Shown here in pieces: positions 1 through 6,811 of a stretch of 28,159 bases of DNA. The notes under the pieces are model-generated. The model was not told the origin of the DNA, did no database searches, and worked only from the letters and a program-made list of their open reading frames with translations. The DNA comes from Candidatus Saccharimonadota bacterium. Its GTDB lineage: Bacteria; Patescibacteriota; Saccharimonadia; UBA4664. The position numbers were made by a program, and so were the translations under genes. The stretch is taken from assembly GCA_029237755.1 (NCBI GenBank), contig JAQZBT010000001.1:1-28159 (forward strand), read 5' to 3'. Each line of letters starts with the position of its first letter. Within the stretch, counting starts at the first letter, position 1.

Positions 1-635
1 GGCAGGTGAGTGCGGGGTAGATCTTCGACCCGGTGGACGAGCCGCCAGATCTTCATCCGGTCGCCGTAGGCCTTCTTGCCTTCGGTGATGACCGTGGACC
101 ACCCTCGGAAGGAGAGCGGGTGATACTCACGCAGTCCCGGATCAGCGCGCACGATGACGAAGCCGTCTGCCGGCAGCGCTTCGAGGCCGTGATGGACACG
201 GTCGCGGCCGAGCCAAACATGGTCGTCGTTCTCGAGTCCAGGATGAACCACCACTCGCAACGGCGGCCACGAGCGTCTGAGAAGTTCGAGCCGCGCGTCG
301 AAGTCGGGCGACATCGCCGTGAGCAGACCGAGCCCCAGGGGTCGGTCTTCAGCTTCGTACATCTGGACGGTGCCGGCTGGCGGATAGAAGGCATCTTCGG
401 ACGGTTGATAAAGAGTGACGCCTTGACCGTCCTGATCCACCAGTGTGCAGTCCAGGCGCCAGATGCCCGAAGGTACACCGAGCAGGCGCATGGCGGCCGT
501 GTGCTCGGTCGTGAAGGCGTTGGCGGCTTGGACGACGAGGCGAGAGGCCTGCCGGACGATGTCGCGGCTGAGTGGCAGGGTGACGTTGGACACGGTCGTT
601 TTCCAACCGACGTCGATGTCGTGAGTGGGGAGCAT
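1..635 (-). CDS. Hypothetical protein, possibly ATP-grasp-like ligase; partial, runs off the left edge; not in the ORF track
   Basis: ATG at 635 with GGAGG SD (644-640) 4 nt upstream. The frame is open to the window edge for about 211 codons (MLPTHDIDVGWKTTVSNVTLPLSRDIVRQASRLVVQAANAF...). The motifs WRLDC and MYEAEDRPLGLG resemble the R-x-D and E-x-[N/E]...PxGxG motifs of glutathionylspermidine-synthase-like ATP-grasp proteins; the product call is inference. Confidence 0.8.
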   Translation of the reverse strand, partial: MLPTHDIDVGWKTTVSNVTLPLSRDIVRQASRLVVQAANAFTTEHTAAMRLLGVPSGIWRLDCTLVDQDGQGVTLYQPSEDAFYPPAGTVQMYEAEDRPLGLGLLTAMSPDFDARLELLRRSWPPLRVVVHPGLENDDHVWLGRDRVHHGLEALPADGFVIVRADPGLREYHPLSFRGWSTVITEGKKAYGDRMKIWRLVHRVEDLPRTHL

Positions 636-687
636 GGTGCCTCCAGGGGTCGTTGGATTGTGGGGTACGCTTTTTGCCTGCCCGCTA

Positions 688-712
688 ACAGAAAACCGCT
701 CCGGAGGAGCGG
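688..712 (-). terminator. Intrinsic terminator (attenuator) upstream of the left-edge gene
   Basis: Minus strand CCGCTCC-TCC-GGAGCGG (712-696, 7 bp) followed by TTTTCTGTT. Confidence 0.75.
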
Positions 713-742
713 GGCTGTGTGCGGGTTTGGGCAAGGGTATGG

Positions 743-817
743 TTAATGACCGCGCACAGCATCAACCAGCCACCAAGCGGTGACAGCAGCGTTGAAGCTG
801 TGAGAGATGGAAACCAT
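743..817 (-). CDS. Leaderless 24-aa leader peptide with tandem Trp (MVSISHSFNAAVTAWWLVDAVRGH)
   Basis: ATG at 817 lies 6 nt after a TAATAT -10. TGG TGG at 775-770, TAA at 745-743, followed by protector and terminator hairpins. Confidence 0.75.
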   Translation of the reverse strand: MVSISHSFNAAVTAWWLVDAVRGH

Positions 818-823
818 GGCGGT

Positions 824-852
824 ATATTAATGCCAAAATTATGAATTAGCAA
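824..852 (-). promoter_or_regulatory. Sigma70-type promoter of the Trp leader unit
   Basis: TTGCTA (852-847), 17 nt spacer, TAATAT (829-824), 6 nt, ATG. Confidence 0.7.
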
Positions 853-863
853 AGGGTAGGGCA

Positions 864-886
864 GGGAGCGGACCGGGTCCGCTCCC
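864..886. terminator. Perfect 10-bp hairpin between the two attenuated units; probable terminator of the 84-aa gene
   Basis: GGGAGCGGAC-CGG-GTCCGCTCCC lies 25 nt after the stop of the 84-aa gene; no immediate U-tract. Confidence 0.5.
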
Positions 887-911: not shown

Positions 912-1166
912 CTAGCGGCCACTCCTCGTGCCTTTCAGCCTGCCGCCACGTTTGGGACGGCCTTTCTTTTTGGCGGGCGCCGATTGGTCGCTGATATCCA
1001 CGCGGCCAAACTTGCGCATCTTGCGCAGCGCGTTGTCGTCCGGCGGGCTGATGAGAGGAGCAGTGGCTTCGGACGCGACGAGTTGGGGGCTGACGAACCC
1101 TTGGGTGGCGTTGATGGCGGCTTGCACCGTCAGGTTGGAGCGGAACTTGATCGTGCCGTAGTGCAC
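912..1166 (-). CDS. 84-aa hypothetical protein with a Lys/Arg-rich C-terminus
   Basis: Track ORF 912..1193. I prefer the GTG at 1166 (MHYGTIKFRSNLTVQ...) because GAAGGA lies just upstream and the track's TTG at 1193 sits in the terminator U-tract. Confidence 0.7.
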   Translation of the reverse strand: MHYGTIKFRSNLTVQAAINATQGFVSPQLVASEATAPLISPPDDNALRKMRKFGRVDISDQSAPAKKKGRPKRGGRLKGTRSGR

Positions 1167-1191
1167 AGTGAATCCTTCCGTAGATGGGTAC

Positions 1192-1214
1192 AAAAAAGCC
1201 GCTGCTGTGAGCGG
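1192..1214 (-). terminator. Intrinsic terminator (attenuator) upstream of the 84-aa gene
   Basis: Minus strand CCGCT-CACAGC-AGCGG (1214-1199) followed by CTTTTTT. The stem is short (5 bp). Confidence 0.6.
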
Positions 1215-1244
1215 TGCCTGGCTGGTCGGTGGGTGAGGGTTGAA

Positions 1245-1319
1245 TCAAGCAGCGTAACCAGGCACACGCAGACACATGTTGCAGCAGGGCATCATGGTGA
1301 CTGAGTAATGGCTGGTCAT
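1245..1319 (-). CDS. Leaderless 24-aa leader peptide rich in Met/Cys (MTSHYSVTMMPCCNMCLRVPGYAA)
   Basis: ATG at 1319 lies 6 nt after a TAACAT -10. Codons 9-16 are ATG ATG CCC TGC TGC AAC ATG TGT. TGA at 1247-1245. Same length and spacing as the Trp leader. Confidence 0.7.
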   Translation of the reverse strand: MTSHYSVTMMPCCNMCLRVPGYAA

Positions 1320-1325
1320 GGCAAG

Positions 1326-1354
1326 ATGTTAACGTTTGTTGAGTAAGCGGTCAA
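1326..1354 (-). promoter_or_regulatory. Sigma70-type promoter of the Met/Cys leader unit
   Basis: TTGACC (1354-1349), 17 nt spacer, TAACAT (1331-1326), 6 nt, ATG. Confidence 0.75.
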
Positions 1355-2437: not shown

Positions 2438-3493
2438 ATGATTAACCGTTTACTCGGTCTGTTATCGCACGACATTGGCATCGACCTGGGAACGGCCAAT
2501 ACGTTGGTCTATGTGCGTGGGAAGGGGATCGTTATCAACGAGCCCAGCGTGGTAGCGGTAAACGTGAAGACCAAGCAGGTGCTGGCTATCGGTGACGAGG
2601 CCAAGAAGATGGTGGGCAAGACACCGGCCAGCATCGTGGCGACGCGGCCACTCGTCGACGGCGTGGTGAGCGACTTCGAAGTGACTGAGCAGATGCTCAA
2701 GTACTTCATCAATAAGGTGCACAAGGAGACGTACAGCGTCTTTCCACGGCCGCGGGTAGTGGTTGGTATCCCGTCAGGCGTGACCGAAGTGGAGAAGCGG
2801 GCGGTGGAAGACGCCGCGACCAACGCCGGTGCGCGCCAAACCTTCCTGATCGAGGAGCCAATGGCTGCAGCGATCGGCTCGCGGCTGCCGATCCAGGATG
2901 CGGCGGGCAGCATGATCGTCGACATCGGCGGTGGCACGACTGAAGTGGCCATCATCTCGCTCGGTGGCATCGTCGCCAGCCGCAGTCTGCGCACAGCCGG
3001 TGACGAGCTTAGCGATGACATTATCCAGTACGCGCGCGAGCAGTTTAACCTGCAGATCGGCGAACGCACGGCCGAAAACATCAAGATTGCTGTCGGCTCG
3101 GCTTACCCGGTATCCGGAGGCCCCAAAGAGGTGCCGATGCGGGGCCGTGATCTCGTCACCGGACTGCCCAAGGAGATCATGGTGACGCCGGAACAGATCA
3201 GGCAGGCGCTGTCGAAGAGCGTGCGCGAGATTGTTGAGGCGGTGAAGATCACGATCGAGGAGACGCCGCCCGAACTGGTGGCCGATATCATGGAGCGCGG
3301 AATCTACTTGGCGGGCGGTGGAGCCCTGCTGAAAGGGCTCGACACCATGCTGTCCAAGGAGACCAAGATGCCGGTCCACAAAGCGGACGACCCGCTGACA
3401 GCGGTAGCGCGGGGGACGGGTCTGGTGCTGGAAGACATCGATGCTCTCAAGGATATTCTGGTGCCGACGCAGTACGGGAAAATTCCGCGTTAA
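2438..3493 (+). CDS. mreB: Rod shape-determining actin-like protein MreB
   Basis: IGIDLGTANT, IVDIGGGTTE and AGGGALL motifs; 351 aa. Confidence 0.98.
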   Translation: MINRLLGLLSHDIGIDLGTANTLVYVRGKGIVINEPSVVAVNVKTKQVLAIGDEAKKMVGKTPASIVATRPLVDGVVSDFEVTEQMLKYFINKVHKETYSVFPRPRVVVGIPSGVTEVEKRAVEDAATNAGARQTFLIEEPMAAAIGSRLPIQDAAGSMIVDIGGGTTEVAIISLGGIVASRSLRTAGDELSDDIIQYAREQFNLQIGERTAENIKIAVGSAYPVSGGPKEVPMRGRDLVTGLPKEIMVTPEQIRQALSKSVREIVEAVKITIEETPPELVADIMERGIYLAGGGALLKGLDTMLSKETKMPVHKADDPLTAVARGTGLVLEDIDALKDILVPTQYGKIPR

Positions 3494-4807: not shown

Positions 4808-6811
4808 ATGGCACACAAGTCTATCTTTGGCTATCTCGAAGACTCGGCCGCTTCCGACAAACTCAAGGTGAAGCGCAGTATGTCGCGGTATGAGGAATGG
4901 ACCGAGGCTATTTTGCCGGCGGATGCCGAAGCCGAGGGTCCCGAAGGCGAGACTAGCCGGCGGCCGTTGTTGGCGTTTGGCGTGGTTGCCGGTGTGGCGC
5001 TGAGTATCCTCCTGTTGCGCTTGTTTTCGCTCCAAGTGGTGGCGGGTGACGAGAACCTGGCGCTAGCTAATGGGAACCGCATTCGCGAAAGAGTGGAACG
5101 GGCACCGCGGGGCATGATCTATGACCGCAACAAGGTGGTGTTGGCGCGCAACCAGGCGAGCTTCGACGTGACGGCCGTACCCCAGCTCTTGCCAACGGAC
5201 GAGAAGGAGCGGCGCAAGGAGTATGAACGGGTGGCTAGCATGCTGGGGTTGCCCGTGGACGAAGTGGCCAAGCGGGCCGAGGTAACATGTAAGGTCAAAA
5301 CCCCCGGGTGTCTGCGTAGCCCGATTCCGCAGCTAATCGCTGCCGGCGTGGATCGCGACAAGGCGCTCCTGATCGACCAATCAAGCGGCTCGCTGCCCGG
5401 TTTCGCATTGGACGTAAACCCGATCCGTCAGTATGCCGATGAGAACCTGCTGTCGGTGTTTTTGGGATATACCGGCCGCGTCAGTCCTGAAGAGGTAAAA
5501 TCCAACCCGACCTACGGACCGACCGACTTGATTGGGAAGCTCGGACTGGAGAAGCAATACGAGGAAGTATTGCGGGGGACTAACGGTGGCGAGCGCACGG
5601 AGGTAGACGCCACCGGCCGCCCGGTGCGGGTCCTGGCTAGCCGTGATCCGGCGCCGGGGGATAACCTGGTACTGTCGATCGACCAGTCGCTGCAGCGCAA
5701 GATGTCCGAAGCGTTGCGTACCCAGATGACGCGCGGCAACATCAAGCGCGGAGCCGGTATCGCGGTGAACCCCAAGACCGGCGAAGTGTTGGCGGCGGTG
5801 TCGCTGCCGACATATGACAACAATGAGTTTAGCCGCGGCATCGGCGAGGCGAGCTACCGGGCGCTGGTCAACGATCCCGGCCAGCCGTTGTTCAACAAGG
5901 TCCTGTCGGGCGCTTATCCATCCGGATCGGTGATCAAGCCGATGACCGCGTCGGCGGCGCTGCAGGAGAAGATTGTGACGGCCAACACGATCATCAATGA
6001 CACCGGCCAGCTCGACGTCGTCAACCCATACGACAACAGCATCCATTACATCTATAAGGGCTGGGAGACGTCGGGTCTGGGCAACGTCAACCTGTTTTCG
6101 GCCATTGCCCGTTCGTCGGACATCTACTTCTACACGATCGCCGGCGGTTTCACCAACTTCACTCGTTACCTGGGTGTGGAGAAACTCACCGATTGGTACA
6201 TGAAGTTTGGCTTCGGAGCGCGCACCGGGGTCGACCTGCCAAGCGAAACGAAGGGCCGGGTGCCGACGCCCGAGTGGAAGAAGAAGTTTTCGGGCGATCC
6301 GTGGTATACGGGTGACACCTACAACATTTCGGTGGGGCAGGGCGACATCCTGACATCGCCGATACAGATGGCGATGGCGACGGCGGCCGTAGCCAATGGC
6401 GGCAAGCTGCTCAAGCCTCACTTTGTGTCAGAAGTGACAGACGCAAATGGCAAAACGGTGAAGAAGTATGGAGCGGAGACGATAAGACAGGTGCCGGTAT
6501 CGCCCGAGAACCTGGCGTTGGTGCGCCAGGGTATGCGAGATACGATTCAGAAGCCATACGGTACGGCGTGCTGCTTCATGGAGAAGGAAGTGCCGGTGCC
6601 GGTGGCAGGAAAGACCGGTTCGGCCGAGACCGACCCCAATAACAAGGTGTTGCCGCACTCGTGGTTCACTTCCTTCTCGCCCTACAACGATCCGAAGATC
6701 GTGACGGTGGTGTTGTTTGAGAAGGCCGGTGAAGGTTCGCAGTTCGCGGCGCCGGCTACCAGGGAATTATTGCGCTGGTATTACACCGAAGGCGCGGGCG
6801 CCTCTCGGTAG
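4808..6811 (+). CDS. mrdA: Penicillin-binding protein 2 (class B transpeptidase)
   Basis: PRGMIYDRN, YPSGSVIKP (SxxK), SSDIYFY (SxD variant of SxN) and AGKTGSAE (KTG). Confidence 0.95.
   Translation: MAHKSIFGYLEDSAASDKLKVKRSMSRYEEWTEAILPADAEAEGPEGETSRRPLLAFGVVAGVALSILLLRLFSLQVVAGDENLALANGNRIRERVERAPRGMIYDRNKVVLARNQASFDVTAVPQLLPTDEKERRKEYERVASMLGLPVDEVAKRAEVTCKVKTPGCLRSPIPQLIAAGVDRDKALLIDQSSGSLPGFALDVNPIRQYADENLLSVFLGYTGRVSPEEVKSNPTYGPTDLIGKLGLEKQYEEVLRGTNGGERTEVDATGRPVRVLASRDPAPGDNLVLSIDQSLQRKMSEALRTQMTRGNIKRGAGIAVNPKTGEVLAAVSLPTYDNNEFSRGIGEASYRALVNDPGQPLFNKVLSGAYPSGSVIKPMTASAALQEKIVTANTIINDTGQLDVVNPYDNSIHYIYKGWETSGLGNVNLFSAIARSSDIYFYTIAGGFTNFTRYLGVEKLTDWYMKFGFGARTGVDLPSETKGRVPTPEWKKKFSGDPWYTGDTYNISVGQGDILTSPIQMAMATAAVANGGKLLKPHFVSEVTDANGKTVKKYGAETIRQVPVSPENLALVRQGMRDTIQKPYGTACCFMEKEVPVPVAGKTGSAETDPNNKVLPHSWFTSFSPYNDPKIVTVVLFEKAGEGSQFAAPATRELLRWYYTEGAGASR

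Follow-up and report, generated by a model that had tools for sequence, protein, structure and literature searches.

Classical attenuation has been worked out in enterobacteria and actinobacteria. The closest counterparts of the leader described here are trpL of Escherichia coli, together with pheL, hisL, and leuL, with which it shares a short open reading frame (ORF) carrying the putatively sensed codons, an intrinsic terminator, and alternative helices between which a translating ribosome would choose, as well as tandem Trp codons. In comparison with trpL-type leaders, however, it appears to have neither a 5' untranslated region nor a Shine-Dalgarno sequence, and it is related to them neither by sequence nor through Rfam. 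The controlled gene also differs from that of trpL, being a predicted ATP-grasp ligase gene in an organism without detectable trp genes, and an antiterminator overlapping the terminator was not found in this copy.

In Corynebacterium glutamicum, leaders precede trpE (with three Trp codons), leuA, ilvB (without a ribosome-binding site), and aroF (with a Phe-Tyr-Phe motif) (PMC4046766; PMC3890552). The absence of ribosome-binding sites is a shared feature, and the aroF leader is comparable to a YYFWF leader found in front of a DAHP synthase gene in the present genome. However, the two organisms belong to different phyla, and the targets considered here include nonbiosynthetic genes, namely those for the ligase, for an M20 deacylase, and for a PIG-L deacetylase. 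In mycobacteria, leaderless polycysteine short ORFs (the "Cys ribulon") unmask a downstream ribosome-binding site, which constitutes translational control (10.1101/834739). The present units resemble this system in their leaderless sensory short ORFs, in the occurrence of several independent units per genome, and in the proposed use of ribosome pausing, but each of them is followed by a hairpin and a T-tract and would therefore probably act on transcription rather than on translation. A literature search retrieved no paper on attenuation in Patescibacteria.

The DNA analyzed here (the window) is a stretch of 28,159 nt that represents one whole contig of a Saccharimonadia assembly of 983 kb and 71% completeness (genomes of the same family range from 0.6 to 1.7 Mb). 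The MreB of another family member, G004, belongs to a cluster at 90% identity that is named Candidatus Saccharimonadia. No Rfam family, Trp_leader and T-box included, reached its gathering score anywhere in the window. Near its beginning lies a leader unit, hereafter unit A, which we regard as probably being a ribosome-mediated leader-peptide transcription attenuator, with low levels of charged tRNA-Trp most likely raising transcription of the ligase gene. The attenuator class of element is well supported, and we infer the response to Trp, the translation of the leader, the start of the transcript, and termination at approximately position 690. Unit A combines a textbook mechanism with a new lineage and an unexpected target gene; on its own, the window copy is one more member of the class. 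Its features, read from the window sequence, all lie on the minus strand:

847-852, minus strand: -35-like hexamer TTGCTA, 17 nt from the -10 box, a spacing shared with a twin unit (unit B)
824-829, minus strand: -10-like hexamer TAATAT, ending about 6-7 nt before the ATG at 817
743-817, minus strand: leader ORF of 24 codons plus TAA (745-743), with the same length and spacing as in unit B
755-802, minus strand: ORF-internal hairpin (802-791 paired with 766-755) with an apical stem (784-779 paired with 774-769), from minimum-free-energy folds of the ribosome-free RNA
770-775, minus strand: tandem Trp codons TGG TGG, codons 15 and 16 in the sequence
750-760, minus strand: 5' arm of helix H1, within codons 20-23 of the ORF, from pairing energy; accessible in the model while the ribosomal A site is at W15 or W16, covered once it reaches L17
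714-724, minus strand: 3' arm of helix H1, from pairing energy, 1 nt (713) before the terminator stem
696-712, minus strand: terminator hairpin with a 7-bp stem (6 G-C pairs) and a 3-nt loop TCC, -12.5 kcal/mol
688-695, minus strand: short T-tract TTTTCTGT, longest T run of four
640-644, minus strand: GGAGG, Shine-Dalgarno sequence for the ligase ORF, with a spacing of 4 nt to ATG 635
3-635, minus strand: 5' part (211 codons) of the predicted ATP-grasp acid-amine ligase gene, which runs off the contig end

The promoter of unit A matches 8 of 12 consensus positions and fell under the threshold of the promoter tool; it was accepted by the looser rule of our genome scan, and the same tool did pass the promoter of the twin unit B. 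Since the -10 box lies just before the ATG, the leader would be translated as a leaderless mRNA, and the sequence implies a transcript starting at, or within a base of, ATG 817; no Shine-Dalgarno sequence is present upstream of that ATG. The second TGG ends 9 nt ahead of strand 760-750, the terminator begins 30 nt past the leader stop codon, and 52 nt separate the end of the T-tract from the ligase start codon. With only four consecutive T residues in its T-tract, the terminator is probably leaky. A 237-aa ORF on the plus strand (33-746) was rejected as a gene; it shadows the ligase gene and the leader encoded on the opposite strand. The DNA runs that contain the window sequence are soil metagenomes, a search for RNA runs gave none, and the leader showed no variation in any of three such runs, each represented by fragmentary contigs only.

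Unit B lies upstream of unit A on the same strand, and its parts are the following:

1190-1354, minus strand: unit B overall, with its promoter (1354-1326) reported by the promoter tool
1245-1319, minus strand: leader ORF of 24 codons, with six Met/Cys codons among codons 9-16
1199-1214, minus strand: terminator with a 5-bp stem
912-1193, minus strand: gene for a 93-aa basic protein after unit B

The geometry of the two units is identical at an offset of 502 nt, and their ungapped identity at this offset is 0.42, compared with 0.256 +/- 0.035 at other offsets. In the ribosome model described below, the switch point of unit B falls directly after C13. A variant of unit B occurs in DNA runs X1 and X2, in which an in-frame 3-nt insertion at 1305 converts Y to YY. 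Between the 93-aa gene and the promoter of unit A lies a perfect 11-bp hairpin (862-885, minus strand, loop CGG) that has no T-tract, so that transcripts initiated at unit B may extend into unit A.

The first-pass annotation of this DNA had stated that the controlled gene is neither trpE nor a Trp transporter, and this is correct. Neither Pfam nor NCBIfam contained a match to the ligase, to the peptides of the leaders, or to the neighboring 93-aa protein. An AlphaFold model was generated from a 13-sequence alignment, whose first row was the homologue P0001 from genome G004 and which included the 211 residues of the window as another row. The resulting model of P0001 (pLDDT 87.6, pTM 0.88) matched YjfC/YgiC, glutathionylspermidine synthetase, and eukaryotic glutathione synthetase in Foldseek over the whole chain, with a probability of 1.00 (E = 7e-07 to 1e-05 and TM 0.44-0.55 for 7uk6, 7uka, and 2io8, and likewise for YgiC/YjfC models), the sequence identity being only 9-14%. 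On the basis of these structural matches, the gene was assigned as a predicted ATP-grasp acid-amine ligase of the GspS/YgiC/eukaryotic GSH-synthetase type. To our knowledge, the ligase has no link to tryptophan, a point against a Trp sensor in front of it.

The C-terminal part of the ligase was located at the start of another contig of the same assembly, C28 (G000:C28:7-342), where the gene is followed by these features, the two leaders again being predicted to be leaderless:

C28, 456-536: Cys-codon leader (locus L049), then a PIG-L deacetylase gene (top NCBIfam matches BshB/MshB, none reaching the cut-off)
C28, 1518-1592: W/F/L leader (locus L049), then a gene for a 467-aa protein (ESM Atlas matches to GCS2 ligases, score 0.97)
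C28, further on: gene for an ArgE/DapE-type M20 deacylase, then one for an alpha/beta hydrolase

A GCS2-like ligase and an M20 deacylase are encoded 1.8 kb further on, behind a W/F leader of their own. The 467-aa protein was also considered as a relative of the ATP-grasp ligase family, and hhalign showed no relation. Units A and B and the two C28 leaders place four attenuator-like units within about 5 kb.

The class assignment of unit A is supported by the leaders in front of ligase homologues, which comprise 13 proteins, 9 of the 401 genomes of the class, and 29 metagenome loci; one homologue is labeled Patescibacteria, and an M20 deacylase gene adjoins the ligase gene at most loci. A total of 25 leader units were found at 23 Patescibacteria loci, two of which carry tandem pairs, along with further short leaders, five more of them with W. 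The leader stop codon lies 23-31 nt ahead of the terminator in the first 13 units examined, which are unit B and 12 units from loci of ligase homologues. W is present in 20 of the 25 leaders, within an aromatic cluster, and a terminator/antiterminator switch was modeled in 20 of the 25 units, in which a strand at the 3' end of the ORF pairs with the 5' arm of the terminator. In most units, this duplex reaches z = -3 to -6 relative to dinucleotide shuffles. The aromatic fraction of the six codons preceding the modeled switch is 0.48, compared with 0.24 +/- 0.05 at random boundaries (0 of 10000 trials, a figure that overstates independence since the loci are related).

The leader peptides have only their composition in common, with lengths of 17-47 residues and no conserved C terminus. 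Their best conserved feature is W followed by a hydrophobic or aromatic residue, and W15 of the window copy fits this pattern. The conserved WW that the first-pass annotation had proposed to look for in homologous leaders was not found: W itself recurs as stated above, but the tandem is confined to the window copy, and relatives usually have one W in a cluster of F, Y, and W. The order of these residues is shuffled between loci, which suggests that the identity of the codons is under selection and not a peptide or RNA motif. The leader of the relative G163 carries KRRR at the sensor position. In the leaders of L006, L015, and L029, the second W codon falls within the antiterminator strand itself. 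Besides the window copy, the modeled switch is absent in L007, L031a, and L023, and the 14-bp helix of L007 likewise abuts its terminator. A single-protein search of genome contigs for closer relatives of the window leader retrieved nothing.

From these comparisons, the following course of events can be proposed. Transcription would start at the weak sigma-70-type promoter with ATG 817, the 24 codons would be translated in leaderless mode, and RNA polymerase would then meet the hairpin and T-tract at 712-688 ahead of the ligase gene. As modeled and compared across the family, a G-rich strand in the last leader codons can pair with the terminator 5' arm. This strand stays free, giving read-through, as long as a ribosome is stalled just upstream at aromatic or Trp codons, and it is covered, giving termination, once a ribosome reaches the stop codon. 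The window copy has its two Trp codons at the sensor position of the family, and its strand 760-750 would pair beside the terminator, not within it.

On folding, the 231-nt leader RNA of the window copy was more stable than 200 of 200 shuffles (z = -3.5). The two pairings on which the first-pass annotation was built are real: 760-750 matches 724-714 at 10 of 11 positions (one C.A mismatch at 754/720, -15.7 kcal/mol), and 728-721 matches 699-692 at 7 of 8 (-4.0 kcal/mol over a 21-nt loop). The former helix, H1, ends at 714 and is separated from the terminator by a single nucleotide instead of the two previously given. As a duplex, H1 does not exceed chance in its GC-rich context (-24.8 vs -23.0 +/- 3.1 in shuffles, z = -0.6). 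It has no bases in common with the terminator, and both helices can form at once, for a total of -28.2 kcal/mol. An extension of H1 into the terminator 5' arm was considered and rejected, as only short interrupted pairs through TGG TGG are available (about -5.7 vs -12.5 kcal/mol).

To follow the effect of translation, the ribosome was placed at each codon and only RNA 3' of it was folded, in an equilibrium model; an earlier variant that permitted pairs spanning the ribosome gave misleading profiles, for example for G004, and was replaced. With the A site at W15, W16, L17, and D19, the modeled stability of H1 is -16.6, -12.8, -6.4, and -1.5 kcal/mol, respectively, so that W15 and W16 are the last stall positions that keep it intact. 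At equilibrium, H1 does not exclude the terminator: its partner strand 724-714 lies beside the terminator without overlap, so that the terminator also forms in the model when the ribosome is at the Trp codons. A switch at these codons was consequently not reproduced, the terminator probability being at least 0.99 at both W15 and W16, and, under two assumed footprints, at all positions except F8 (0.83) and N9 (0.63). The dip at F8 and N9 arises from a long interrupted helix (781-750 paired with 724-695) in which the G residues of the TGG codons face the terminator 5' arm. In the ribosome-free fold, the ORF-internal hairpin takes strand 760-755 away from H1 and the terminator forms, which makes the hairpin at 802-755 a protector-like element in the model; the bases of TGG TGG constitute the 3' strand of its apical stem (774-769). 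For this copy, the possibilities left are that the abutting helix acts kinetically or sterically, that codons other than those for Trp do the sensing, or that the terminator has drifted and is mostly constitutive and leaky.

The main rival of Trp-dependent attenuation takes unit A to be an attenuator by descent whose UGG UGG is kept for RNA helices, namely the apical stem and the long alternative helix extending to both arms of the terminator. Control would then come from stalls at codons 8-9 (Phe/Asn), or the terminator would be mostly constitutive and leaky, keeping ligase at a low basal level. We consider this rather unlikely. In its favor, F8 and N9 are the only codons at which the terminator weakens in the model, and the best duplex sets the G residues of both TGG codons against the terminator 5' arm. 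This pairing counts against Trp sensing in the window copy, since UGG UGG may have been retained for RNA structure; the second W within the antiterminator strand in three relatives and the T-tract of four T residues point in the same direction. On the other hand, W plus a hydrophobic or aromatic residue, the best conserved feature, lies upstream of the pairing strand in at least 20 units, with W15 in the expected place, and a single Phe codon would make a poor sensor. In addition, the chance of WW arising within 24 codons is approximately 0.4%, as estimated from typical Trp usage.

A very improbable alternative is the three-helix arrangement of the first-pass annotation, in which 760-750 paired with 724-714 serves as a protector whose opening by a ribosome stalled at TGG TGG would free 728-721 to pair with 699-692 and block the terminator. 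Its pairings are present, and a similar AACCCGC segment precedes the terminator at the homologue locus of G004. Nevertheless, the proposed antiterminator falls 8.5 kcal/mol short of the adjacent terminator (-4.0 vs -12.5), and a ribosome at the stop codon, which leaves 728-714 free, still gives a terminator probability of 0.99. The supposed protector is the positional counterpart of the antiterminator of relatives (ORF 3' strand paired with terminator 5' arm), and a ribosome at the Trp codons leaves it closed and nearly whole rather than masked; under the labels of that scheme, Trp starvation would therefore favor termination, which turns its logic backwards. What stands of the proposed trp-attenuation logic is the membership of the locus in a family of ribosome-read leader-peptide attenuators, together with Trp as the probable amino acid; the assigned roles of the helices do not, and the model forms the terminator at both Trp codons. 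Least credible of all is the notion that the small ORF encodes a functional peptide (a RiPP-like substrate or precursor of the ATP-grasp enzyme, or a TnaC-like arrest peptide responding to free Trp) followed by an ordinary intergene terminator: an ATP-grasp gene does lie downstream, and the 24-residue length and W-x-x-x-D spacing of the leader resemble those of E. coli TnaC, but the peptides of relatives share neither sequence nor length, units built in this way also stand in front of unrelated genes of the genome, the ligase fold is of the small-molecule GspS/GSH-synthetase type, the C-terminal residue is His and not the Pro needed in TnaC, and termination would be by an intrinsic hairpin rather than Rho-dependent as for TnaC.

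For Trp-dependent attenuation, the reading that we favor, sensing of Trp by the window copy is likely by homology, and the supply of this amino acid was surveyed. Searches for TrpA, IGPS, and chorismate synthase were negative both for this genome (71% complete) and for G004 (98% complete), with positive controls detected in 14 of 14 reference genomes. Trp is therefore probably imported, and its supply would be worth sensing. A DAHP synthase gene is present in this genome, with an attenuator-like leader in front of it and chorismate synthase not found. T-box elements were not found before 15 ligase homologue loci (Rfam, E up to 0.01), several of which have short leader ORFs. A T-box-like leader does occur in G163 (L053, 1169-1375; 44.7 bits vs a Rfam gathering score of 93, E = 1.6e-08), in front of an asparagine-synthase-like gene, trpB, and trpA, with mreB adjoining. 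Judged by sequence, this relative appears to use a T-box-like leader where the present genome would use leader peptides.

Similar units recur throughout the assembly. A scan for a terminator-like hairpin preceded, at 15-40 nt, by the end of an ATG-initiated ORF of 12-50 codons, with a promoter-like pair of hexamers whose -10 box ends 5-9 nt ahead of that ATG, returned seven units. In these, the ATG follows the -10 box by 6-8 nt, the ORF has 15-26 codons, and the terminator lies 23-31 nt past the stop codon. When the same promoter rule was applied at 17 decoy offsets, about 0.7 candidates were obtained per bin, which corresponds to an approximately tenfold enrichment for the seven units. An eighth unit, before the DAHP synthase gene, appears in the list of the same scan without the promoter rule. 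Leaders on four other contigs are as follows:

C51 (L050): CC..CC leader, before a Cys/Met-metabolism PLP enzyme of the cystathionine gamma-synthase type (Pfam, 444 bits)
C52 (L051): MMM leader, before a gene cut by the contig end
C70 (L052): Leu/Ala-rich leader, before a valine-pyruvate transaminase gene (NCBIfam, 565 bits, above cut-off)
C44 (L056): YYFWF leader, before a class II DAHP synthase gene (567 bits)

These four leaders, of which CC..CC, YYFWF, and Leu/Ala stand in front of cognate genes, served as controls for the ribosome model: their terminator probability is approximately 0 with the A site on the codon run and approximately 1 one to two codons later. An antiterminator that excludes the terminator is thus modeled in the other units of this genome, as it is in 20 of the 25 homologous ones. 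On a contig of a close relative with an MreB at least 90% identical to that of the window, an FSFYWF leader before a DAHP synthase gene shows the same modeled behavior, and a CCC leader precedes a PIG-L gene. The ligase is absent on contigs with such an MreB, whose neighborhood contains M20, or DAHP synthase and PIG-L, instead. Together, the leaders on C51, C52, C70, and C44 look like a regulon-like set of ribosome-read switches.

Classical attenuation would then be a genome-wide habit, with no fewer than eight units per megabase, of a lineage that is ultrasmall, probably dependent on hosts, and poor in regulators. The sensor codons could serve as labels for dark genes, linking the ATP-grasp ligase/M20 deacylase operon, which occurs across Patescibacteria, to aromatic amino-acid shortage and PIG-L to cysteine, and the leaders supply hypotheses on how amino-acid auxotrophs meet shortage. 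As a more tentative and, in our view, rather improbable extension, Trp-auxotrophic Saccharimonadia and other Patescibacteria might share a response to Trp or aromatic shortage whose outputs are amide-bond ligases (GspS-like, GCS2-like) and deacylases (M20, PIG-L), switched on by ribosome stalls at Trp codons, and the helix employed by the window copy, as by that of L007, may be one that adjoins the terminator without overlapping it. If so, an abutting helix would modulate termination in a way that nearest-neighbor models miss.

Two further observations concern the loci of ligase homologues. Tandem leader-plus-terminator units precede a single ligase gene at L006 (1111-1480) and L031 (1198-1470), an arrangement reminiscent of tandem riboswitches. 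At L004 (approximately 2930-2975), L005 (approximately 3005-3040), and L003 (approximately 5090-5170, minus strand), the stretch from the terminator to the ligase start codon contains a second hairpin that is conserved, CCAGGCC...GGCCTGG, which could represent a second control point or a processing site; in L004 and L005, it is followed by GCATCAG.
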